A model generated the notes under the pieces. It ran no database searches and was not told the origin of the DNA. It saw only the letters and a program-made list of their open reading frames with translations. A program made the translations under genes and the position numbers. Positions 3,949 through 26,649 of a DNA stretch of 36,794 nt are shown one piece after another (position 1 is the stretch's first letter; each line of letters starts with the position of its first letter). The DNA lies in IMG/VR virus record IMGVR_UViG_2713896909_000013; one strand, given 5' to 3'. This stretch comes from a virus. Taxonomy: Duplodnaviria > Heunggongvirae > Uroviricota > Caudoviricetes.

Positions 3949-4802
3949 GCACCATCCTGAAATGGGCGGGAAATAAAACTGCCATAATGTCCGAACTAAA
4001 AAAACATCTTCCTGCTGGCCCGCGACTGGTTGAACCTTTCGCGGGTTCCTGTGCTGTGATGATGGAGACGGATTATCCCAGCTATCTGGTTGCGGATATT
4101 AATCCTGATTTAATCAACCTCTATAAAAAGGTTGCCGCTGATTGTGAATCGTTTATATCTCGCGCCAGAGTTTTATTTGAGATCGCAAACAGGGAGGTGG
4201 CTTATTACAACATAAGGCAGGAGTTTAATTACTCAACTGAAATTACTGATTTCATGAAAGCGGTATATTTCCTGTATCTCAATCGTCACGGTTACCGTGG
4301 TTTATGTCGCTATAACAAGAGCGGGCATTTCAACATTCCCTACGGTAATTATAAAAATCCGTATTTCCCTGAAAAAGAAATTCGCGCATTTGCAGAAAAG
4401 GCCCAGCGAGCAACGTTTATCTGCGCCAGCTTTGATGAAACGCTGGCGATGTTGAAGGCGGGGGATGTGGTGTATTGCGATCCGCCGTATGACGGTACGT
4501 TTTCCGGCTATCACACTGACGGCTTCACTGAAGATGACCAGTATCACCTGGCATCTGTTCTTGAACATCGGTCATCAGAAGGACATCCGGTCATTGTTTC
4601 TAACAGTGACACATCCCTGATCCGTTCGCTGTATCGCAATTTTACTCACCACTACATCAAGGCAAAACGCAGCATCGGTGTGGCAGCTGGCGAGGGTAAA
4701 TCAGCAACAGAAATCATTGCTGTTTCCGGGCCGCGCTGCTGGGTGGGATTTGATTATTCGCGTGGCGTGGATAGTTCTGCCGTGTACGGAGTACGTGCAT
4801 GA
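3945..4802 (+). CDS. dam: DNA adenine methyltransferase (Dam-like, N6-adenine)
   Basis: N-terminal AdoMet-binding motif (KWAGNK) and catalytic DPPY motif ([11 protein letters not shown]); RBS GGAGGTG before the ATG at 3945. Confidence 0.85.
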
Positions 4803-7213
4803 GTCATGCCGATATGAACAACTGCTGCGGCTTTAACGAAGCTGCCGCATCGTTCTCATGGAACAGCTCGAAAAAGGCCATTAACCCTTATCTGGACCCG
4901 GTGGAAGTTGCGCCGGTTTCTACGCTTTCAAACCTGATCACTCTGTACGCTGCCGATAACGAGCAGGAACAGCTGCGCCGTGAGGCGCTGAGTGATCAGG
5001 TCTGGGAGCGTTATTTCTTTAATGAATCCCGTGATCCTGTCCAGCGCGAAATGGAACAGGATAAGCTCATTAGTCGGGCAAAGCTGGCGCATGAGCAGCA
5101 GCGTTTTAATCCGGATATGGTCATTCTGGCGGACGTCAACGCCCAGCCTTCCCATATCAGCAAGCCGCTGATGCAACGTATTGAATACTTCAGCAGCCTG
5201 GGCAGGCCAAAGGCTTATTCCCGCTATTTACGTGAGACGATTAAGCCATGTCTGGAACGACTGGAGCATGTACGCGACAGTCAGCTATCTGCATCTTTTC
5301 GCTTTATGGCAAGCCATGAAGGGCTGGACGGCCTGCTGATCCTGCCTGAAATGAGTCAGGATCAGGTGAAACGCCTGTCCACCCTGGTAGCTGCGCATAT
5401 GAGTATGTGCCTTGATGCCGCTTGTGGCGATTTGTATGCCACCGATGACGTTAAGCCAGAAGAAATCCGCAATACATGGGAAAGGGTGGCAGCGGAAACC
5501 CTGCGTCTGGATGTCATCCCGCCTGCGTTTGAGCAACTCCGTCGGAAAAGAAACCGCCGTAAACCCGTGCCCTATGAACTCATTCCGGGTTCGTTGGCGC
5601 GTATGTTGTGCGCCGACTGGTGGTATCGGAAATTATGGAAGATGCGTTGCGAATGGCGGGAAGAGCAGTTGCGTGCTGTCTGCCTTGTCAGCAAAAAAGC
5701 ATCTCCCTATGTCAGCTATGAAGCCGTGTTGCATAAACGTGAGCAGCGCCGTAAGTCGCTGGAGTTTTTCCGTTCTCATGAACTGGTGAACGAAGACGGC
5801 GACACGCTGGACATGGAGGATGTGGTAAACGCCAGCAGCAGCAACCCTGCGCATCGCCGCAATGAGATGATGGCCTGTGTTAAAGGTCTGGAGCTTATCG
5901 CGGAAATGCGCGGTGACTGCGCCGTTTTCTACACCATCACCTGTCCGTCACGTTTCCATTCCACGCTAAATAACGGCAGGCCCAACCCAACCTGGACAAA
6001 TGCGACGGTAAGACAAAGCAGTGATTATCTGGTCGGCATGTTTGCTGCATTTCGTAAGGCGATGCACAAAGCCGGATTGCGGTGGTATGGCGTGCGGGTG
6101 GCTGAGCCGCATCATGACGGTACAGTTCACTGGCACCTGTTGTGTTTTATGCGCAAAAAAGACCGCCGCACCATCACTGCATTACTGCGTAAGTTTGCCA
6201 TCCGTGAAGACCGCGAGGAGCTGGGCAATAACACTGGGCCGCGCTTTAAGTCTGAGTTGATTAACCCGCGCAAAGGTACGCCAACAAGCTACATCGCGAA
6301 ATACATCAGTAAGAACATTGACGGGCGTGGTCTGGCTGGCGAGATCAGCAAGGAAACGGGGAAATCCCTGCGTGATAATGCTGAATACGTTAATGCCTGG
6401 GCGTCTCTGCATCGTGTTCAGCAATTCCGCTTCTTTGGCATTCCGGGGCGTCAGGCTTACCGTGAACTGCGATTGCTGGCTGGTCAGGCGGCAAGGCAAC
6501 AGGGGGACAAAAAAGCAGGTGCGCCGGTACTGGATAACCCGCGCCTTGATGCCATTCTGGCTGCTGCTGATGCTGGTTGTTTTGCCACCTACATCATGAA
6601 GCAGGGTGGCGTACTGGTTCCCCGCAAATATCACCTCATCAGAACTGCTTATGAAATCAACGAAGAGCCGACCGCCTATGGCGATCACGGCATTCGTATT
6701 TATGGCATCTGGTCACCTATTGCAGAGGGCAAGATCTGCACTCATGCCGTGAAGTGGAAAATGGTTCGTAAGGCCGTTGACGTTCAGGAGGCGGCAGCCG
6801 ACCAGGGCGCTTGCGCCCCTTGGACTCGTGGCAATAACTGTCCCCTTGCTGAAAATTTGTACCAACAAGGGAAAGACAAATCAGCTGATGGGGATACCAG
6901 AACGGATATCACCCGCATGGATGACAAGGAATTGCACGATTACCTGCACAGTATGAACAAAAAAGAGCGCCGGGAACTGGCTGCAAGGTTACGCCTGGTG
7001 AAACCGAAACGGCGTAGAGACTACAAACAGCGAATTACAGATCATCAGCGACAGCAGCTCGTCTATGAACTGAAGTCCAGAGGATTTGATGGCAGCGAGA
7101 AAGAGGTCGATTTACTCCTTCGCGGCGGCAGCATTCCGTCAGGAGCAGGCCTGCGTATTTTCTATCGGAACCAGCGTTTGCAGGAAGATGATAAGTGGCG
7201 GAACCTGTATTAA
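4799..7213 (+). CDS. A: replication initiation endonuclease, P2 gpA-like (rolling circle, HUH)
   Basis: 804-aa protein with an HUH-type motif (DGTVHWHLL, about 6124..6138); position and size match P2 A. Confidence 0.85.
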
Positions 7214-7305
7214 TTACGCGGGTTAACAATTCGTGCTCTTAATAATACCAGGTATATCAGGCTGATGAACGTAAAAAAACGTTTTACATCAGTAAGATTA
7301 TTATA

Positions 7306-7325
7306 TACTGTAAATATAAACAGTG
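7306..7325. promoter_or_regulatory. LexA (SOS) box
   Basis: TACTGTAAATATAAACAGTG matches the CTGT-N8-ACAG LexA consensus with an AT-rich spacer; about 40 bp upstream of the ORF at 7367. Confidence 0.7.
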
Positions 7326-7366
7326 GTTATGCGTACAGTATTGCTTGTGGTGTCATAGGAGGAAAG

Positions 7367-7555
7367 ATGCAGGACTATTTTTTGGAGTCTTTGAAGCTCC
7401 AGCGCATTGATTTTTTTCTTAAGCTTGTAGCGGCTAGTGAGTGTAGTGATGAAGAGAAGGGGCTGGCCCTGCAGTGGGTTTCTGAACTGACAGATGAACT
7501 CATGGCAAAAATCAGAACCCACGAATACAACCGCTCAATGGATGTCATCAGCTGA
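7367..7555 (+). CDS. SOS-controlled small protein, candidate Tum-like antirepressor
   Basis: 62-aa ORF with a perfect AGGAGG RBS directly downstream of the LexA box and upstream of a DinI-like gene; the antirepressor role is inference from the 186 Tum arrangement. Confidence 0.45.
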   Translation: MQDYFLESLKLQRIDFFLKLVAASECSDEEKGLALQWVSELTDELMAKIRTHEYNRSMDVIS

Positions 7556-7565
7556 GGTGACTTTT

Positions 7566-7799
7566 ATGCGCATTGAAATAATGATCGATAAAGAGCAGAA
7601 GATTAGCCAGTCTACCCTGGACGCCCTTGAATCCGAGCTTTACCGCAATCTGCGCCCCCTGTATCCCAAAACGGTAATTCGCATTCGCAAAGGTAGCTCT
7701 AACGGTGTGGAACTGACCGGACTGCAACTGGACGAAGAAAGGAAGCAAGTGATGAAAATTATGCAGAAGGTGTGGGAAGACGACAGCTGGCTGCATTAA
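7566..7799 (+). CDS. dinI: DinI-like protein
   Basis: 77 aa, MRIEIMIDKEQ...ELYRNL...LDEERKQVMKIMQKVWEDDSW resembles the DinI family in length and motif pattern; RBS GAGGTGA. Confidence 0.7.
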   Translation: MRIEIMIDKEQKISQSTLDALESELYRNLRPLYPKTVIRIRKGSSNGVELTGLQLDEERKQVMKIMQKVWEDDSWLH

Positions 7800-7829
7800 G
7801 AAACGTTGCCCCCAAGAGGATTCATTCTG

Positions 7830-8000
7830 ATGGGGGACTATTTTGGGCAACGAGTGAAACGAGGCGTTAGGTGGACGGCCATTTTGATAAGTGATCGTCC
7901 GCTTTTTGTTCTGAGTTCAAGCGATGGATTTAACACACTGGTTGAAGCAGAAGTATCTAAGTTCAATTTATATTATTTGAAGGGCACTGGTCTGATGTAG
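7830..8000 (+). CDS. questionable small ORF at the backbone/cargo boundary
   Basis: 56-aa ORF from an internal ATG with upstream AAGAGGA; overlaps an inverted repeat (GTTGCCCCC...GGGGG...GGGCAAC) that could instead be a terminator after the dinI-like gene. Confidence 0.2.
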   Translation: MGDYFGQRVKRGVRWTAILISDRPLFVLSSSDGFNTLVEAEVSKFNLYYLKGTGLM

Positions 8001-8086
8001 TACGATTTTTGCCGGAGATGGCATGTTCTATATTGATCTCATCCATATAATGATTGGTATTATTAGCTTAGTTTAAAGAGGATTGA

Positions 8087-9664
8087 ATGGATATCAACTA
8101 TGTTGTTTCAAAAATGGGGTTCGTAGATGATCTTATTAATGCAGGTTCATTTGATTCTGCCTATAAAAATGTAAAGGATATTCTTAACGGTATCGATGAG
8201 ATAAATACAATCAAAGAAAATAGAATAATTATATTATCTAATTTGGCCGGAAATCTTATTGATATCGGAAGTTTTAGTAATGTAAAAAATATAGCGGAGG
8301 AAGGCTTAAATATCTTTATAAACAATAAAAATGAATTTCTGACTATAATGAAAGAATCCTTATATTACTATAACTTGGCAAATGGAATGAGCGCAGTTCT
8401 TGATTTTAATCCTAATGACAATGCAGATATTGATAGTTTCATTAAGCTGAATGATGTAAAAAATAATTACTGGAAAGCGTTTAAACTTTCACAAGAAGAT
8501 GGATGGGTGCCCCCTGATTTAATAGTTAATCTAGCTAATGTATTAAAAAAACAATATCGTATATCTGAATCAATGGATTATTATGAACAAGCAATATCTA
8601 TTGATAACTCAATTCCTCAGGCGTGGGTAAACAGATCTGAGGCATTAGAATTGCTTAATGAATTATCTACAACATATACATATAAAATGATTAAAGAAGT
8701 TATTCGAGGTTATGAGTGTGCAATAAAGTCAGGGAAATGTTTTCCTTCATGGAAGGTTGCTCTTCAAAGAAAAATAAAGTACAACGAAAGTATATTGAGT
8801 GAATCATGTGTATATGGGATAGAGGATATAAGTACAGATGAAAGGCTCACGCAGGAGGAGTATGATACTTTATCAAACTACCAGAGGTTTTGTATAGATA
8901 ATAATCTAATGTTGTCTGATCATTCGCTATATTGCAATTGTTATGCGTCATCTAAAGATAATATAACTATTGCTACCACCGAGGAAGGTGTGTTTGGTGA
9001 TTTTATAGTGCCAATGGAAATGGTGTTAAATAGACTTAAAGCTGAGTATTCCTTAGCACGAAAAATGTTTTTTGAATATAAGGTTGATAGTGAGTTTTTT
9101 GATGAGGATTCGGAGGTATGTTATTCTGAATTGTATAATGGAGAAATATTGTATGAAAATGTTGAGAAGTTAAGGGTTGCATTTAGAGCTTGCTTTGGTA
9201 TCTTGGATAAAATAGCAGTTGCTCTGTGTCAATTATTTGATTTAAAACCAGATAGAGGACATATATACTTTCATAACTTCTGGCGGATTAGTGATGAAAA
9301 AAGAAAGCTTAAAATAAACAAAATAAATAATAAAGGATTGCTGGGTTTGTTTAGTATTGCTATGGATTTGAATGATAAAAATGGTGAGCTTGCTTTTTTT
9401 AAAGAATGGAGGAATGATTTAGAACATAAACTGTTAGTTATTCACGAGAAAGACATGTTAGTTGATTTATATAATTCTTATGGATTTTTTGATGAGGTGA
9501 GATTTATTGAGAAAGAAAAGTTTGAGAAACAGCTCTTACAACTCATGAAAATTGTGAGATCAGCCGTTATTCTTTTTGTGTTTACCATACGTATAGAGGG
9601 GAAAAAAAGTATTCCTAAAGATATGTTGACCATTAAAAATACCATCGAGAGAAAAGTATTGTAG
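8087..9664 (+). CDS. cargo protein 1: TPR-like N-terminal region with C-terminal HEPN-like domain (Rx4H motif); candidate abortive-infection RNase
   Basis: 525 aa, very AT-rich relative to the phage backbone; RBS AGAGGA and a TATAAT-like -10 upstream; RNDLEH (Rx4H) at about 9410..9427; TPR-like helical repeat signature in the N-terminal half. Domain calls are from motif reading only. Confidence 0.45.
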   Translation: MDINYVVSKMGFVDDLINAGSFDSAYKNVKDILNGIDEINTIKENRIIILSNLAGNLIDIGSFSNVKNIAEEGLNIFINNKNEFLTIMKESLYYYNLANGMSAVLDFNPNDNADIDSFIKLNDVKNNYWKAFKLSQEDGWVPPDLIVNLANVLKKQYRISESMDYYEQAISIDNSIPQAWVNRSEALELLNELSTTYTYKMIKEVIRGYECAIKSGKCFPSWKVALQRKIKYNESILSESCVYGIEDISTDERLTQEEYDTLSNYQRFCIDNNLMLSDHSLYCNCYASSKDNITIATTEEGVFGDFIVPMEMVLNRLKAEYSLARKMFFEYKVDSEFFDEDSEVCYSELYNGEILYENVEKLRVAFRACFGILDKIAVALCQLFDLKPDRGHIYFHNFWRISDEKRKLKINKINNKGLLGLFSIAMDLNDKNGELAFFKEWRNDLEHKLLVIHEKDMLVDLYNSYGFFDEVRFIEKEKFEKQLLQLMKIVRSAVILFVFTIRIEGKKSIPKDMLTIKNTIERKVL

Positions 9665-9986
9665 TATATTTTCATCGAGCGATGAAACGGTCTGTTTTTC
9701 TTTATAGTTTTGTCATAAAAAAGAGATTTCCTGCTTAAAATTTGGCTATTACAGAGCAACTATGTATGTTCCTCGCTCACAGTAGAGCTTCATCTTTGTA
9801 AGTCTGTATGTTTCGTTTTTCAAGTGGTCATTCAGATACGGACTTTCACTTCTCTTAGACAGTGCATGACTATGCTGCATGAAATCGCATGATCGTTTAA
9901 GGATCGTTTTTGCTAAGGCTCGCCAGAACTAGCGGGCTTTTACGTAGAACATGCAGGTGCATGAAAACCACTACATAAAGCGGGCA

Positions 9987-10005
9987 GGCGTGGCGGGGAT
10001 ACGAT
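9987..10005. other. cos: cos cohesive-end site (P2/186-type 19-nt sequence)
   Basis: GGCGTGGCGGGGATACGAT followed by TGCGCGC; closely matches my recollection of the P2 and 186 cohesive ends (GGCGAGGCGGGGAAAGCAC... / GGCGTGGCGGGGAAAGCAT) including the downstream TGCGCGC; sits in a GC-richer patch between the two AT-rich cargo genes. Confidence 0.6.
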
Positions 10006-10065
10006 TGCGCGCAAGCATAGATTCTGTAATATGTATGGCACATAGCAAATGACAAGGTGATTATT

Positions 10066-11805
10066 ATGCATGCGATCTTGAAACAATACGTCGAAGATCT
10101 TTCTAACCAATTTGCGATAGAAGAAGATGAACCGAAACTCTTCGAGTATTTTTGTAATTATGTTATTGCTTCTAAAAAGTATTTAGGACGATTTAGCCCT
10201 ATCGATATCACTACTCAAGAGGATGATGCCTCATTAGACGGAATTATCTTTCTTATTGATGGTGAATTAATAACTACTGTTGATGATGCTGAGGCGATAT
10301 TTAAAACCCATAAAACATCATTGCCAGTGGAGTTAATACTTACTCAGATTAAATCTGGTGAGGCTTTTGTTAAATCAGATATTGCAAATTTCAAGATTGG
10401 CTTGGATGATTTTTTAAGTCTTAAACCAAAATTACCAAATGGTATCTATAACACTCAAGCTATTGAAATATTGAAAGTAATATTTGCAAATGTAAAAAAA
10501 ATTAAAAACAAAAAACCATCGCTTACAGTTCATTATTGCACTAGTGGTACTTATGTTGAAGAGAGAGAAATTAAAGCTACATTTGATATAATTAAAAAAT
10601 CATGCTTCGATACTGACTTTTTTGATTCTGTTGACGTGAGACCTCTCGGGCGTAAAGAACTAATGGATATGTGGATATCCATAACCGAAAAAAATGAGGC
10701 TGAGTTACAGTTGATTGATTACATAGGTATCGAGGCTATGCCAGGTATCCCTCAATCATATATTGCAATTGTAAAAGCAAAGCATTTTATTGAGAAGCTT
10801 GCAAAAGATAGTGATGGAAAAATAAAAGAGTCAATTTTTGAAGAAAATATACGTGCGTTCTTAGGAAGTGATAATAATGTTAATAATAAAATATCCTCAA
10901 CTTTAGAAGATAAAAAAATAAAAGCAAAACAATTTCCAGTGTTGAATAATGGAGTGACTATAATTACTCCAGAGTTATCTATACAACCAAACACAAAAGT
11001 TATAAATCTTACAAATTATCAAATTATTAATGGTTGTCAAACAACTAATACACTCTTCCATCATTACGATAATTTAAATGATGATGTTGAGATTGTTGTC
11101 AAATTTATAGAGTCTCAAGATGCTGATGTTGCAAGTAGCATAATTGAAGCAACAAATAGTCAATCAGCAATTGAAGGAGCAGCGTTTTTTGCATTGCGTG
11201 AAAAAGCTAAAATGGTGCAGAAATATTTCGATCTACAGAGGAAAGACCCAAAACTGGAAAGTATATATTTTGAGCGGCGTGAAAATGAATATCGGCCATA
11301 TGATATACAATCTACACGTATATATGATATTAAAGAACTGGCTCGTTGCTTCATATCTGTATTTAAGCGGAACCCGCACAATGCTGCTAGATATGTTAAA
11401 AAAGTACTTAGCGAAAGCGATAATATAATATTTGGTGAGGCCGATAATGAGTGCGCATATTATACTGCGGCGTATATATGTTATAAGTATAATACTATGA
11501 TTAACGGGCGAAGAGAAAATGCACAAAAGTATAATAAATATAGATGGCATATTGCAATGTTATATCCTTGGGTCGTAAATAAAAAGGTTGAGAAAGTTGA
11601 ATTAAATTCAAAGAAAATGAGTGCCTATTGTGAGCGTATTCTTAAAACATTTTATAATGACAACTATATTAAGCATTTTTCAAAATGCCATGAGATAATT
11701 GATGCTCTTGCTTTAGATAATGAGAATGGTGTTACAGATGATCAACTAAAACGTGCACGATATACTACTAGTTTAATTGAAAAAGCTACTGAGATTTTGA
11801 AATAA
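10066..11805 (+). CDS. cargo protein 2: AIPR-like (abortive infection phage resistance family-like) protein with a possible PD-(D/E)xK-like N-terminus
   Basis: About 579 aa from the ATG at 10066 (RBS AAGGTGA); very AT-rich; NGCQTT motif at about 11029..11046, which I associate with AIPR-type proteins; N-terminal D...QxK pattern (FLIDGE...LTQIK) compatible with a restriction-endonuclease fold. Confidence 0.45.
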   Translation: MHAILKQYVEDLSNQFAIEEDEPKLFEYFCNYVIASKKYLGRFSPIDITTQEDDASLDGIIFLIDGELITTVDDAEAIFKTHKTSLPVELILTQIKSGEAFVKSDIANFKIGLDDFLSLKPKLPNGIYNTQAIEILKVIFANVKKIKNKKPSLTVHYCTSGTYVEEREIKATFDIIKKSCFDTDFFDSVDVRPLGRKELMDMWISITEKNEAELQLIDYIGIEAMPGIPQSYIAIVKAKHFIEKLAKDSDGKIKESIFEENIRAFLGSDNNVNNKISSTLEDKKIKAKQFPVLNNGVTIITPELSIQPNTKVINLTNYQIINGCQTTNTLFHHYDNLNDDVEIVVKFIESQDADVASSIIEATNSQSAIEGAAFFALREKAKMVQKYFDLQRKDPKLESIYFERRENEYRPYDIQSTRIYDIKELARCFISVFKRNPHNAARYVKKVLSESDNIIFGEADNECAYYTAAYICYKYNTMINGRRENAQKYNKYRWHIAMLYPWVVNKKVEKVELNSKKMSAYCERILKTFYNDNYIKHFSKCHEIIDALALDNENGVTDDQLKRARYTTSLIEKATEILK

Positions 11806-11811
11806 ATGGAT

Positions 11812-11842
11812 GCAGCCCAAGGAAGGGCTGCTAATTTTTATT
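11812..11842. terminator. bidirectional rho-independent terminator between cargo gene 2 and portal gene Q
   Basis: GCAGCCC-AAGGAA-GGGCTGC hairpin followed by TAATTTTTATT; lies between the convergent genes ending at 11805 and 11838. Confidence 0.6.
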
Positions 11843-12869
11843 CGAAATGATACGAAAAAAAATTGATAATGTCCTCACCTAACCAATCATTAATCTCTGA
11901 TATTCTTTTTTGTAAAGGTAATAGCTCATTCCTTACAAAAACCTTACTAGCCTTCTCCACATCTCCAAATCCCCCAACATTATTAGGCATTATTCCCATC
12001 ATCTGCGGCGGCACACGATGCGCCGCCATCATGTCATCTCGGCTGACGTTCTTAATATTCAAAAACTCATCCTTCGCCGCGACTTCTGACAACGGGATGA
12101 TCTGAAGCCCGTCCTTTTTGCCGTTAGGCGAGTACATAAACAGGTTGCGGAAATTGCCTGGTCCTTTAGCATTTTTCATCGCATTGCGGAGGTTGTTCAC
12201 GTCCTCCTGATTCTGCGCGGCGTCGGTCATGTACATGATGAAGCCTGCATGGCTGCCGTTGATGTAATACTTACGGCGGAACAGCGTTGCGGACTCGTTG
12301 AGCAGGGCGGACGGAATGGCAGAAAGATAACCGGGCAGGCCGTAGATCTCCTGATTAATATCCGGTTCCATCAGATGAAAAATGCTGCCTTTCGTGAACT
12401 GATACGGCTGGGTTGTCATACCGTATTGCACAAACCAGTAGGTATCCAGGTCTAATCCGCGTCGGGTGTATTTTGCCAGCGCAGGTTCAAGGGCGATCAC
12501 TTCACCGAAGCGGTTCGTGCGTTTCTCCAGATAGGCGTTGCCAAATACCAGATAGTCCTGCACAAAACGCGAAAAAGCCTGCTGGCTGAGCAGAGGATGA
12601 GGGATATAGGTACTGGTCAGAATGTTGCACTTTACTGCAATCGGGGAACTGTGATGCACGGCGGCGCGGAAGGTGCGAGCCAGACCGTCGAAACTCACTG
12701 GCGGCTCATACCAGCGATCTGTCTGTACGCATTGCACATAGTCCAGCAGTTCGCGGCGGTCAAGTACAGGAACGGGATCACCGAAGCTGAATGCTTCGGC
12801 TGAAGTCTGGCTTTTATGCTGGATCTGATTCGTCGCCGTAGTGCGGTTTTTCTTACTCTTTCCCATCAA
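11838..12869 (-). CDS. Q: portal protein, P2 gpQ-like
   Basis: 343 aa, matching P2 Q in size and position next to the large terminase gene. Confidence 0.85.
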   Translation of the reverse strand: MMGKSKKNRTTATNQIQHKSQTSAEAFSFGDPVPVLDRRELLDYVQCVQTDRWYEPPVSFDGLARTFRAAVHHSSPIAVKCNILTSTYIPHPLLSQQAFSRFVQDYLVFGNAYLEKRTNRFGEVIALEPALAKYTRRGLDLDTYWFVQYGMTTQPYQFTKGSIFHLMEPDINQEIYGLPGYLSAIPSALLNESATLFRRKYYINGSHAGFIMYMTDAAQNQEDVNNLRNAMKNAKGPGNFRNLFMYSPNGKKDGLQIIPLSEVAAKDEFLNIKNVSRDDMMAAHRVPPQMMGIMPNNVGGFGDVEKASKVFVRNELLPLQKRISEINDWLGEDIINFFSYHFE

Positions 12870-23078: not shown

Positions 23079-24604
23079 GCACAAAATTTTATACCCTGCT
23101 GACGGATATTGGCGCGGCGAAACTTGCCAGCGCCGCCGCGCTCGGTGTGCCGCTAAAAATTACCCATATGGCGGTCGGCGATGGCGGCGGAGTATTGCCA
23201 ACGCCAGACTCAAAGCAGACTGCACTGGTAAATGAGAAACGCCGGGCTGCGCTGAATATGCTCTATATCGACCCGCAGAACAGCAGCCAGATTATTGCCG
23301 AACAGGTGATCCCTGAAAACGAGGGCGGTTGGTGGATACGTGAAGTGGGCTTGTTTGATGAGTCCGGGGCATTGATTGCCGTGGGCAACTGCCCGGAAAG
23401 CTATAAGCCGCAACTGGCTGAAGGTAGCGGGCGCACTCAGACCGTGCGCATGGTGCTGATTACCAGCAGCACGGACAATATCACCCTGAAAATCGACCCT
23501 GCCGTAGTGCTGGCAACCCGCAAGTATGTGGATGACAAGGCACTGGAGCTGAAGGTGTACGCGGATGATCAGATGGCAAAACATCTTGCCGCACCGGACC
23601 CGCATTCACAGTATGCACCCAAAGAAAGTCCGACGTTTACCGGGACACCCAAAGCGCCAACGCCAGCCGCAGGGAATAATACCACGCAGATTGCGACCAC
23701 CGCGTTTGTTCAGGCGGCTCTGACGGCTCTTATTAATGGTGCGCCAGCCACGCTGGACACGCTGAAAGAAATAGCCGCAGCCATTAACAATGATCCGAAA
23801 TTCAGTACCACCATTAACAATGCGCTGGCACTGAAAGCGCCGCTGTCGAGTCCGGCACTCACCGGAACGCCAACCGCACCTACTGCGGCACAGTCGGTCA
23901 ACAATACACAGATTGCCACCACGGCATTTGTGAAATCGGCGATTGCGGCAATGGTGGGTTCTGCACCTGCGGCACTGGATACACTGAACGAACTGGCGGC
24001 AGCGCTGGGGAATGACCCGAACTTTGCCACGACAATGCTTAATGCGCTGGCAGGTAAACAACCGCTGGACAATACGCTGACTAATTTGAGTGGAAAGGAT
24101 GTAGCTGGTCTTCTCACATACCTTGGTTTGGGAGAAGGTTCAGCATTACCTGTTGGTGCGCCTGTTCCGTGGCCTTCAGAGACACCTCCAACAGGCTGGC
24201 TGAAATGCAACGGGGCGGCTTTTTCTGCTGAAGAATACCCGGAACTGGCAAAGGCTTACCCGACAAATAAATTGCCTGATTTACGAGGTGAATTTATTCG
24301 TGGCTGGGATGATGGGCGCGGTATTGATACAGGACGTGCTTTATTGAGCCTTCAGGCTGGGATGCTGGAAAAGCACCGTCATATTGTTGTTGCCAATGAT
24401 GGTTACGACACAAAAGATGAATGGGAACTGGCTACGATTTTCAAAAAGACATACACACAAGGACGGGGACTTGATGCCACAAATACAGGAGGGAGTCTGA
24501 TCCCATCACCGACACTTCATTCACGAGGGAGTATCGGTAATACTGGCGGGAGTGAAACCCGTCCACGAAATATTGCATTTAACTTTATCGTGAGGGCTGC
24601 ATAA
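23075..24604 (+). CDS. H: tail fibre protein H (constant N-terminal part plus current-orientation variable C-terminus)
   Basis: 509 aa; conserved P2 H-like N-terminus; Ala/Thr-rich repeats (NNTQIATTAFV occurs twice); the C-terminal third lies inside the invertible segment. Confidence 0.85.
   Translation: MSTKFYTLLTDIGAAKLASAAALGVPLKITHMAVGDGGGVLPTPDSKQTALVNEKRRAALNMLYIDPQNSSQIIAEQVIPENEGGWWIREVGLFDESGALIAVGNCPESYKPQLAEGSGRTQTVRMVLITSSTDNITLKIDPAVVLATRKYVDDKALELKVYADDQMAKHLAAPDPHSQYAPKESPTFTGTPKAPTPAAGNNTTQIATTAFVQAALTALINGAPATLDTLKEIAAAINNDPKFSTTINNALALKAPLSSPALTGTPTAPTAAQSVNNTQIATTAFVKSAIAAMVGSAPAALDTLNELAAALGNDPNFATTMLNALAGKQPLDNTLTNLSGKDVAGLLTYLGLGEGSALPVGAPVPWPSETPPTGWLKCNGAAFSAEEYPELAKAYPTNKLPDLRGEFIRGWDDGRGIDTGRALLSLQAGMLEKHRHIVVANDGYDTKDEWELATIFKKTYTQGRGLDATNTGGSLIPSPTLHSRGSIGNTGGSETRPRNIAFNFIVRAA
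24111..24136. repeat. hix/gix-like recombination site (left crossover site) inside the tail fibre gene
   Basis: 26-bp imperfect dyad TTCTCACATACCTTGGTTTGGGAGAA; its 15-bp core TTGGTTTGGGAGAAG (24123..24137) recurs inverted at 26001..26015. Confidence 0.6.
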
Positions 24605-25206
24605 TGGATAACGCCGTATTAAATAGCGAGCTTATTGCCACGAAGGCGGGGAATATTACCGTCTATAACTATGATGGTGAAACTCGGGAATATATTTCCA
24701 CTTCAAATGAATATCTTGCCATTGGTGTCGGTATCCCTGCATATTCCTGTTTAGATGCCCCTGGCACACATAAGGCGGGTTATGCTATCTGCCGTTCGAT
24801 GGATTTAAATTCATGGGAATATGTGCCAGATCATCGCGGTGAAATCGTCTATAGCACCGAAACAGGAGAATCGAAAGAAATCACAGCTCCGGGTGATTAT
24901 CCTGAAAATACAACCACTATCGCCCCGTTAACGCCATACGATAAATGGAATGGTGAGAAATGGGTGACAGATACCGAGGCACTGCACGGCGCAGCAGTAG
25001 ATGCAGCAGAAGCACTGCGCCAGTCGCTGATTGATACTGCAATGGCCTCCATCAGTCTGATTCAACTGAAATTACAGGCCGGACGGAAGCTGACGCAGGC
25101 AGAAACAACCCGCCTTAACGCTGTGCTGGATTACATTGACGCGGTGACGGCAACAGATACCAGCACAGCGCCGGATGTCATCTGGCCTGAACTGCCGGAG
25201 GCGTAG
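24604..25206 (+). CDS. G: tail fibre assembly chaperone, P2 gpG-like
   Basis: 200 aa immediately after H; its C-terminus (DVIWPELPEA) is shared in type with the inverted copy. Confidence 0.8.
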   Translation: MDNAVLNSELIATKAGNITVYNYDGETREYISTSNEYLAIGVGIPAYSCLDAPGTHKAGYAICRSMDLNSWEYVPDHRGEIVYSTETGESKEITAPGDYPENTTTIAPLTPYDKWNGEKWVTDTEALHGAAVDAAEALRQSLIDTAMASISLIQLKLQAGRKLTQAETTRLNAVLDYIDAVTATDTSTAPDVIWPELPEA

Positions 25207-25621
25207 GCCATTCAATATCTGGCGCACCGGAAGTATCGATCAGCTCCAGTGCGTCCAGATAATCCAGCCACAAATTATATTGCGCCAGTTCATCACCTTT
25301 CAGACGACCAATAGCGGCTTTACCGGGCCATTGCTTACTGTTCATGTATTCGTTGGCCTGGTTAATTAGTAGCTGTCTTTCTGATTCAGTAATTTCAATA
25401 AGCTCTTCATGAGTAGGTGGAGGAATATCTGCCCACGTAGGTAGTCCATCCTCTCCGGCAATACGGACTTTTCCTTGTGGCGGTTCAGCCATAAACTCAC
25501 TGACAATATTTTGATTCACCTCCTTAGCATCTGATAAATCCCATCCTACTGATTTATATTTATCAATCATATCCACAGGGAAAAAAGCATTATGCCTGGC
25601 ACTATAAACATATTCGTTCAT
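25178..25621 (-). CDS. alternative tail fibre assembly chaperone (G', inverted orientation)
   Basis: Minus-strand ORF convergent with and overlapping G; C-terminus DIEWPTPPAVQAR resembles the G C-terminus; RBS AGGGTGA before the ATG at 25621. Confidence 0.7.
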   Translation of the reverse strand: MNEYVYSARHNAFFPVDMIDKYKSVGWDLSDAKEVNQNIVSEFMAEPPQGKVRIAGEDGLPTWADIPPPTHEELIEITESERQLLINQANEYMNSKQWPGKAAIGRLKGDELAQYNLWLDYLDALELIDTSGAPDIEWPTPPAVQAR

Positions 25622-25641
25622 ATAAATCACCCTGAATAAAA

Positions 25642-26016
25642 TTACTCACCAACAGCCCACCAACTGTAATGCATAGATACCGTGTCGCTGGTTGATGACG
25701 TTCTGTAAGCAGAATTAAAGCCGGTTAACGTAGGGCCTTCTGCAGTCATCACGAACCCTCGCCCAGCGCCTAAAGGCGCACCGCCATCACCAGAATGGGT
25801 AAGAATGGCGCAGTCCGCTTTTTTAGGGAAAGGGATAGGAAATGTAATCCTCATTGTTTGCGTCGATAATTTCGGCATAGCCTCACCTCGACCATATTGC
25901 AGAATTTTACCGTTGGGTAATTTCATCCATCCATCACCACTGGCAAAAGAAGCCATGTCCGGTATCTGATTTTCCCCTGTTCCCACACCCCGTTTCGCTG
26001 CTTCTCCCAAACCAAC
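25642..26016 (-). CDS. alternative tail fibre C-terminal segment (H', expressed only after inversion)
   Basis: Minus-strand reading frame running from the right inverted repeat to a stop just upstream of G'; has no promoter or RBS of its own in this orientation. Confidence 0.6.
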   Translation of the reverse strand, partial: VGLGEAAKRGVGTGENQIPDMASFASGDGWMKLPNGKILQYGRGEAMPKLSTQTMRITFPIPFPKKADCAILTHSGDGGAPLGAGRGFVMTAEGPTLTGFNSAYRTSSTSDTVSMHYSWWAVGE

Positions 26017-26027
26017 GTTTATGAAAA
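25991..26027. repeat. hix/gix-like recombination site (right crossover site)
   Basis: Contains CTTCTCCCAAACCAA (26001..26015), the inverted copy of the core in the H gene; lies just upstream of the invertase gene. Confidence 0.55.
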
Positions 26028-26082
26028 TGCAGAGATAATGGCTAACTGGCATCATCCCCGGTTTTTATTCAGGGGATTGATC

Positions 26083-26649
26083 ATGCTTATTGGCTATGTA
26101 CGCGTGTCAACAAATGACCAGAACACCGATTTGCAACGTAATGCACTGAACTGCGCGGGATGTGAGCGGATTTTTGAGGACAAAATCAGTGGTACTAAGT
26201 CCGACAGACCGGGGCTTAAAAAACTGCTCAGGACACTATCGGCAGGTGACACACTGGTTGTCTGGAAGCTGGACAGGTTGGGGCGCAGTATGCGGCATCT
26301 TGTTACTCTGATAGAAGAGTTGCGCCAGCGCGGCGTGAATTTCAGAAGTCTGACTGACAGTATTGATACCAGTACCCCAATGGGCCGTTTCTTTTTTCAT
26401 GTCATGGGTGCCCTGGCTGAAATGGAACGCGAACTGATAGTTGAACGTACCAGGGCAGGGCTGGCTGCAGCTCGTGCTAAAGGCAGAGTAGGTGGACGCC
26501 GTCCTAAGTTGACTACCGAACAGTGGGCACAGATTGGACGTTTACTCGAGGCCGGAGAATCAAGACAGCGTATTGCACTGATTTTTGATGTGGGCGTTTC
26601 TACCATTTATAGAAAATTTCCGGCGAATGAGAACAATGAATCGCCCTGA
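26083..26649 (+). CDS. serine DNA invertase (Hin/Gin/Pin/Cin family)
   Basis: N-terminus MLIGYVRVSTNDQNTDLQ carries the catalytic serine motif of resolvase/invertase enzymes; about 188 aa with a C-terminal HTH; RBS AGGGGA. Confidence 0.9.
   Translation: MLIGYVRVSTNDQNTDLQRNALNCAGCERIFEDKISGTKSDRPGLKKLLRTLSAGDTLVVWKLDRLGRSMRHLVTLIEELRQRGVNFRSLTDSIDTSTPMGRFFFHVMGALAEMERELIVERTRAGLAAARAKGRVGGRRPKLTTEQWAQIGRLLEAGESRQRIALIFDVGVSTIYRKFPANENNESP

Follow-up and report, generated by a model that had tools for sequence, protein, structure and literature searches.

Are the two large AT-rich genes on either side of the cohesive-end site cos in the prophage IMGVR_UViG_2713896909_000013 (IMG/VR; Caudoviricetes) partners in one system, or passengers acquired separately? 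The window, by which we mean the whole stretch of 36,794 nucleotides (nt), is a complete P2/186-like prophage integrated between rcdA/ybjJ and ybjL, and the interval in question (7800-11842) is 100% identical to the chromosome of Escherichia coli strain ST130 (NZ_CP043478.1). RefSeq gives the gene order as replication endonuclease, a hypothetical protein of 62 amino acids (aa), a DinI-like protein, an LA2681-family HEPN protein and an AIPR-family protein, with portal and terminase on the opposite strand. We refer to the two cargo genes as the HEPN gene (left) and the AIPR gene (right). It is very likely, in our view, that the locus is the known cos-proximal hotspot of P2/186-like phages, that about 200 bp of conserved cos sequence split it into two cargo slots, and that each slot holds one acquired AT-rich single-gene module, independently exchanged. 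The main parts are as follows, where slot and block limits are breakpoints seen in related prophages.

7808/7909 to 9809/9861: left slot.
8006-9792, plus strand: left-slot single-gene cassette, TPR + HEPN_LA2681 (coding sequence 8087-9664, 525 aa; G+C content (GC) 0.31).
9810/9862 to 10011-10029: limits of the conserved cos block.
9810-10014, no strand assigned: conserved cos block, phage backbone (GC 0.47), 98-99% identical in prophages with only one of the two cargos.
9987-10005, no strand assigned: cos, with the 19-nt cohesive end GGCGTGGCGGGGATACGAT, which aligns to the annotated P2 cosL/cosR GGCGAGGCGGGGAAAGCAC.
10012-10030 to 11858-11907: right slot; similarity resumes at 11859-11908.
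10015-11837, plus strand: right-slot AbiU/AIPR single-gene module (coding sequence 10066-11805, 579 aa; ribosome-binding site AAGGTG at 10052-10057).

The two genes rarely meet. A survey of 5,426 complete E. coli genomes finds the HEPN gene in 11 (at least 99.6% identity) and the AIPR gene in nine (at least 99.5%), and only ST130 has both. Of 19 carrier genomes, one has the pair; the AIPR gene is missing from ten of the 11 HEPN genomes, and the HEPN gene from eight of the nine AIPR genomes. What lies across cos is diverse. The HEPN gene has at least eight kinds of right-slot partners: retron Ec67, a 121-aa hypothetical protein, IS2 with DUF262, an unrelated AIPR, a PIN protein (twice), a KAP NTPase, a same-sized hypothetical protein of 554 aa, an AAA ATPase and three hypothetical proteins. 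The AIPR gene has at least four left-slot partners, namely a KAP-like NTPase, two hypothetical proteins and a 203-aa hypothetical protein. Slot content thus varies between conserved flanks, with at least eight right and at least four left alternatives among 19 related E. coli prophages. In strain DSM 103246, IS2 is inserted in the right slot.

Both genes also occur alone in other settings. The segment 8006-9782/9792 is ~86% identical to copies in Enterobacter and Yersinia, including 81 nt upstream (with an invariant TATAAT) and ~120 nt downstream. These copies are solo chromosomal insertions, the Enterobacter one flanked by ordinary metabolic genes, and the encoded HEPN homologues (83-84% identical) stand alone in Enterobacter, between ordinary chromosomal genes, and lie within small islands in Yersinia. 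More distant HEPN homologues (~41-57% identical; Pantoea, Pseudomonas, Vibrio) are likewise solo, beside Mrr_cat, Cap4-nuclease, AbiEii or PAAR-toxin genes or integrases. Orthologues of the AIPR protein lie between gpV and gpS of a Serratia P2-like prophage (75% identical), beside the integrase of a P4-like satellite (65% identical; a Logan assembly and an NCBI genome, the protein cluster being named from Salmonella and Citrobacter) and next to a Zot-encoding filamentous prophage of Vibrio cholerae (52% identical). A first-pass annotation, made from the letters of the sequence, had offered both two independent insertions and one two-gene system straddling cos, and had suggested comparing P2/186-like prophages. 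In that comparison the HEPN and AIPR genes vary independently. Co-occurrence in 1 of 5,426 genomes, diverse partners across cos and solo occurrence elsewhere support independent insertions on either side of cos, and the two-gene proposal falls, with the pair present only in ST130 and each gene mostly found without the other.

Where, then, is cargo exchanged? Pairwise comparison with 14 related prophages gives the limits. Similarity to prophages with other left cargo stops at 7807-7908, and the right slot extends from 6-24 nt past the cos 19-mer to a point within the portal gene. The modules are independent and mobile, and both their independent assortment and these breakpoints are direct observations. 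In a repeat search, neither module proved to have direct repeats at its ends, and the island encodes no transposase; we therefore prefer homologous recombination in three conserved flanks, the simplest explanation for the swapping of cargo. Crossovers in the A-DinI region, the cos block and the 3' part of the portal gene would allow the two modules to be exchanged independently. Such exchange agrees with the discussion of homologous recombination in PMC13586616. Site-specific or transposon-mediated insertion was rejected, as flanking direct repeats were not found. A weaker, additional reading is that the cos block may be a dedicated recombination anchor, with both ends of the virion chromosome sampling defence genes independently.

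The composition of the interval follows the same division. The left AT-rich block (7909-9809) has a GC of 0.313 and the right one (10015-11908) a GC of 0.318, against a mean of 0.532 (sd 0.043, minimum 0.417) for 1.8-kb windows outside 7800-12000; the A gene has 0.53 and the terminase gene 0.57. The contrast between GC-rich flanking phage genes and ~4 kb of AT-rich cargo was therefore rightly drawn in the first-pass annotation, as was the co-orientation of two large genes about 400 bp apart: the open reading frames (ORFs; 8087-9664, 525 aa, and 10057/10066-11805) share one strand and are separated by 392-401 bp. The same annotation took everything between the DinI-like and portal genes to be foreign. 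This is true of the AT-rich blocks but not of 7800-7908 (GC 0.50) and 9810-10014 (GC 0.47), which are conserved phage backbone, and its island stops too early, since the AT-rich tract actually takes in a further 70-160 nt at the 3' end of the portal gene.

The cos block is matched in ~1,265 E. coli genomes. A 58-nt alignment around cos is 79% identical to P2, and the surrounding 100 bp have a GC of 0.53, so the GC-richer cos region reported between the genes is indeed there. An imperfect palindrome, TACGATTGCGCGCAAGCATA, lies over the right edge of the cos 19-mer (10000-10019), where the right-slot breakpoints start. The block also contains a hairpin that had been proposed as terminator-like.

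9915-9940, plus strand: hairpin within the conserved cos block, outside the cargo.

Its elements are where they were said to be (GCTCGCC 9918-9924, GCGGGC 9932-9937, TTTT 9938-9941), but the terminator label is hard to keep for so modest a structure. The stem has 9 bp, with a folding free energy (dG) of -13.3 kcal/mol and a z-score (z) of -2.2; 8 of 200 shuffles fold as well, most of the U tract lies inside the stem, and a terminator scan made no call.

How new is this locus? The gpA-gpQ hotspot beside cos, with old/tin as prototypes, was described from 1,650 gene arrangements in 18,150 loci (Rousset et al. 2022, PMC9122126). The classical 'TO region' of P2 holds tin/old (PMC9122126, citing Odegrip 2006; PMC13586616), and a 2026 Nucleic Acids Research study confirms the hotspot and names AbiU among those systems that P2 and P4 have in common (PMC13586616). 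The window has the same arrangement (A gene 4799-7213, cos 9987-10005, portal gene 11838-12866): a site between replication and portal genes, by cos, that is AT-rich, highly variable and often defensive in otherwise similar prophages. The literature treats it as one hotspot, whereas here two sub-slots assort independently, with nothing essential otherwise differing; P2 itself has tin/old left of cos and an empty right slot. Recognised anti-phage genes at the hotspot are PADLOC AbiU in the window and retron Ec67, PIN and KAP NTPase genes in variants. Even the gene combination has been recorded: Table S5A of PMC9122126 includes 'hypothetical + HEPN_LA2681 + AIPR + DinI', with WP_000354145 and WP_059241720. 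The latter is the window's own AIPR protein and the former the HEPN protein of other carrier genomes, at least 99.6% identical in DNA. The hotspot and the gene combination are thus already known, in kind and in detail. The explicit resolution into two slots and the variable portal tail described below were not found in the literature searched.

The right-slot gene is a member of the AbiU/AIPR family. It matches PADLOC AbiU at 2.7e-107 over residues 4-578 (profile positions 2-535 of 537, that is, full length), Pfam AIPR at 1.8e-41 (143.3 bits, cut-off 25) and PHROG 1841 'Abi'. With this full-length AbiU match in a published P2 defence hotspot (PMC9122126), the description of the prophage as a vehicle for candidate immunity genes is well founded. 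RefSeq starts the gene at ATG 10066, giving 579 aa, and AAGGTG, read from the sequence at 10052-10057, is the separate ribosome-binding site that had been claimed for it. The predicted architecture is an N-terminal FokI-like PD-(D/E)xK nuclease, a central ParB/Srx-like domain and a helical C-terminus. Residues E27, D58 and Q94-x-K96 and the motifs N-N-G and N-G-C-Q-T are invariant, and the catalytic residues of the PD-(D/E)xK fold are conserved. Sequence searches against solved structures gave no match, and the NCBIfam MzaE equivalog (the AIPR protein of the MZA system) scores only 34 bits against a cut-off of 1050.

The closest functional parallel is AbiUi of Lactococcus lactis pND001 (PADLOC AbiU, Pfam PF10592), like the window gene a single-gene system with a FokI-type N-terminal fold. 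In lactococcal AbiU this fold is predicted, and AbiUi by itself confers modest resistance, with 10- to 100-fold protection, and retards transcription of the phage (PMC13064643); phage resistance conferred by a single gene of the AbiU/AIPR family is known only for AbiUi (PMC13064643). The window gene differs in coming from an enterobacterial orthologue group carried on P2 and P4 elements, and in its evident central ParB/Srx-like domain, which is undiscussed in PMC13064643. In E. coli it may act as a putative nuclease-based AbiU, in which the ParB-like domain would gate the PD-(D/E)xK nuclease domain.

The left-slot protein matches Pfam HEPN_LA2681 over residues 309-504 (1.8e-38, 132.4 bits, cut-off 27), with weak TPR matches in addition; the second-best Pfam match is another HEPN family, Cthe_2314 (E 0.019). 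An AlphaFold2 model (predicted local distance difference test, pLDDT, 86) forms a TPR superhelix over residues 1-240. Within the motif R442-N-D-L-E-H447, positions R442, N443, E446 and H447 are invariant in 50 homologues with identity down to 37%, and such invariance of R-x4-H across diverse proteins would imply selection for an active enzyme. The LA2681 HEPN family was defined as having a conserved R-x4-6-H and being 'fused to TPR' (Anantharaman et al. 2013, PMC3710099), and the window protein has the same architecture. The family's definition in the literature searched is computational only, and that literature held no functional data for any LA2681-family protein. Here it is found as a mobile single-gene cassette that occurs in the P2 hotspot and at chromosomal sites.

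The cassette carries a conserved TATAAT (8047-8052) and the ribosome-binding site AAGAGGA (8078-8084). Downstream of the stop codon, a block of ~55 nt, TTTCCTGCTTAAA..GGCTATTACAGAGCAACTAT......TCCTCGCTCA (9731-9785), is conserved above the level of the coding sequence among the E. coli, Enterobacter and Yersinia cassettes. Neither strand is predicted to fold significantly, the block lacks a T-run terminator, and species-representative genomes contain no exact copy of it. The annotated HEPN gene of E. coli ECONIH5 lacks 12 codons (513 aa) and its DNA match is short by one base, which may reflect a frameshift near the 3' end.

What might such a protein do? Judging by its domains, the left protein would be a single-chain sensor and effector, most likely acting by abortive infection. 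The TPR domain would bind a phage-made trigger and thereby release or assemble the HEPN RNase, which would then cut tRNA, rRNA or mRNA, so that translation would stop. DARNA/PD-T7-3 offers a precedent: it joins a HEPN RNase to a helical domain, is activated by the complex of phage single-stranded DNA-binding protein with single-stranded DNA, cuts tRNA and causes abortive infection. Like DARNA/PD-T7-3 and ApeA, the window protein combines a HEPN R-x4-H RNase and an alpha-helical repeat domain in one polypeptide. In DARNA, unlike in the window protein, the HEPN domain is N-terminal rather than C-terminal, and the PADLOC models of DARNA/PD-T7-3 and ApeA give no sequence match to the window protein. 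The defence role of the HEPN gene is that of a candidate, predicted from context and domains. We tentatively raise the possibility, which we take seriously without leaning towards it, that the TPR-HEPN_LA2681 cassette represents a novel abortive-infection system encoded by one gene, in which the TPR domain would sense a phage protein and turn on the HEPN RNase. In 186-like prophages, read-through from the LexA-controlled tum/DinI operon might boost it further, immunity then rising during the SOS response.

Several observations weigh against two independent defence modules. Both fold searches of the left protein gave TPR matches only, the TPR repeats swamping any HEPN signal; in a sequence comparison with solved structures, the profile of 50 homologues likewise matched TPR proteins only (E 3e-17). 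The protein has no match among PADLOC 2.0, PHROG or NCBIfam families, and tblastn found its gene in no phage record, with distant plasmid matches only. Rousset et al. tested a different P4 AIPR (pFR77), an unrelated P4 HEPN-TPR (pFR83) and a putative P2 HEPN (pFR103), and list all three in Table S2B, 'additional tested systems', apart from the validated systems of Table S2A (PMC9122126); presumably they were without activity against the eight-phage panel. With a different AIPR and two unrelated HEPN proteins among the non-validated systems, a defence phenotype is therefore not to be assumed. These three are different proteins from those of the window, so their listing does not bear directly on the window genes. 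As to independence, an AIPR-family gene is present in two of the 11 HEPN-bearing prophages, a little above the ~0.7 to be expected from a rough background of 6.5%, and a weak functional affinity between HEPN and AIPR-family genes is compatible with numbers this small.

Are the cargo genes anti-phage at all? One or both might instead be something else, for instance, in the case of the TPR-HEPN gene, a selfish toxin or addiction module, an SOS-expressed regulator of prophage induction, or a host-related moron. The HEPN protein finds no match among curated defence families, its gene sits directly 3' of the LexA-box operon in the same orientation, the Enterobacter copy is found among ordinary metabolic genes, and the hotspot is known to carry cargo unrelated to defence, plasmid-partition genes and cytolethal distending toxin being examples (PMC9122126). 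A HEPN RNase joined to a helical-repeat sensor is, however, a recurrent single-protein defence design (DARNA/PD-T7-3, ApeA), homologues adjoin Mrr_cat, Cap4-nuclease, AbiEii and integrase genes, and R-x4-H is invariant in the 50 diverse homologues. Nor is there the conserved antitoxin-like ORF that would mark a toxin-antitoxin module: the shared cassette (81 nt upstream, ~120 nt downstream) has none, and the small ORFs upstream are mutually unrelated. We regard a non-defensive role as unlikely.

That the two genes form one system straddling cos, echoing lactococcal AbiUi (AIPR) and AbiUii (HEPN), is very improbable. The lactococcal AbiU locus does pair an AIPR-type with a HEPN protein (PMC13064643; PMC3710099), the window genes are co-oriented and similar in GC, and an AIPR-family gene occupies the right slot in those two of 11 HEPN-bearing prophages. 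Yet the exact pair exists in 1 of 5,426 genomes, and the second AIPR, only 28% identical over the core, occurs in nine genomes, eight of them without the HEPN gene. Rough counts from the accessible part of Table S5A (21 LA2681, 32 AIPR, ~495 DinI) predict ~1.4 chance co-occurrences, and on these counts two AIPR-type partners among 11 are therefore unremarkable. Each gene is found solo in other contexts; 400 bp including conserved backbone separate the two, and the HEPN cassette keeps its own upstream and downstream sequence. Its HEPN domain belongs to LA2681 (weakly to Cthe_2314), with AbiU2 absent among the Pfam matches, and lactococcal AbiUii lowers activity instead of enabling it (PMC13064643). 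An operon of the lactococcal AbiUi + AbiUii type was rejected on the co-occurrence data; neither adjacency with co-inheritance nor AbiU2 membership was found.

The idea that the AT-rich DNA is conserved core phage sequence, with a regulatory or packaging role, fits the cos block and the 7800-7908 spacer but has practically no chance of being right for the rest: ~1,265 E. coli genomes match only ~9% of the interval (cos block and spacer), the two genes are limited to 11 and nine genomes, P2 has tin/old left of cos and nothing right of it, phage 186 has orf97 in the left slot, and genome counts and breakpoints together refute it.

Two independently exchanged modules thus being the preferred reading, their flanks deserve description. 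On the left are the following.

7306-7325, plus strand: LexA box TACTGTAAATATAAACAGTG, the sole perfect CTGT-N8-ACAG match in the window.
7367-7555 and 7566-7799, plus strand: SOS operon downstream of the LexA box (a 62-aa ORF and the DinI-like gene), the left flank of the hotspot.
7800-7908, plus strand: conserved backbone spacer 3' of the DinI-like gene (GC 0.50), the left edge of the left slot.

The DinI-like gene matches Pfam DinI (1.3e-22), and PHROG 189 (Tum/DinI) over the C-terminal half of the profile only. Every left-slot cargo examined is oriented as the LexA-controlled operon. The left gene is downstream of this operon and co-oriented with it, so SOS read-through is possible, and position and orientation make SOS-dependent read-through into the left cargo plausible.

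This flank parallels the annotated layout of phage 186, p95(LexA)-tum-t95a-orf97-t95b-cos, in which orf97 occupies the left slot; Orf97 expressed from a plasmid 'blocks 186 infection'. Both have a LexA box, a Tum/DinI-like gene, a hairpin, an accessory gene on the same strand, a second hairpin and cos. They differ in cargo (orf97 there, TPR-HEPN here) and in Tum, which is split here into the 62-aa and DinI-like ORFs; together these look like a split version of the 186 p95-tum SOS operon. In nucleotide alignment to the right end of phage 186, nothing aligned beyond the end of the tum/DinI-like gene and ~40 nt beside cos, and the parallel with the 186 layout is therefore positional only. The spacer contains a hairpin (7809-7836; dG -14.8 kcal/mol, z only -0.85) that resembles terminator t95a in its position, on which any equivalence rests. 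The hairpin at 9915-9940 may likewise correspond to t95b, judging by its position before cos, the sequences not being alignable.

At the right edge, two further features separate the AIPR gene from the conserved part of the portal gene.

11812-11831, no strand assigned: bidirectional intrinsic terminator where the AIPR and portal genes converge (7-bp GC stem, then a T run).
11838-11908, minus strand: variable AT-rich 3' end of the portal gene, bounding the right slot on its right side and co-varying with the cargo.

The terminator has a dG of -14.9 kcal/mol (z -3.0) on the plus strand and -15.8 kcal/mol (z -4.3) on the minus strand, and is the positional equivalent of P2 tQ. The last 90 nt of the portal gene have a GC of 0.28, versus 0.51 in P2, whose right slot is empty. 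Its last ~25 codons differ with each type of right cargo (GC 0.23-0.34 for seven single-gene cargos, 0.40-0.47 for two others). Each right cargo seems to bring along a portal C-terminal tail of its own.

An Rfam scan of 7200-12200 at a permissive threshold gave one chance-level match, and no known non-coding RNA such as retron msr/msd. Elsewhere in the window, 24604-26649 holds two opposed tail-fibre assembly genes, an inverted C-terminal fragment of a tail fibre and a Hin/Cin-type serine recombinase (Resolvase 2.9e-53), and looks like an invertible host-range segment of the tail-fibre region.

So, one system or two passengers? The genes are independent passengers rather than a split system, which answers the question of co-occurrence. 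As one more example of the amply documented P2 defence hotspot, the locus adds little that is new; the first-pass annotation read the feature correctly, yet such a feature is nothing unusual in a P2-like prophage, and this one had been catalogued before. What is left as a defence candidate beyond the published record is the TPR-HEPN_LA2681 protein alone, and its ~1.8 kb cassette, from promoter to terminator, is now precisely delimited. The position of the left slot downstream of an SOS-controlled operon suggests a regulatory link. For P2-like prophages in general, the 'single' gpA-gpQ hotspot behaves as two slots, with recombination points fixed at either border of the cos block and within the 3' end of the portal gene.

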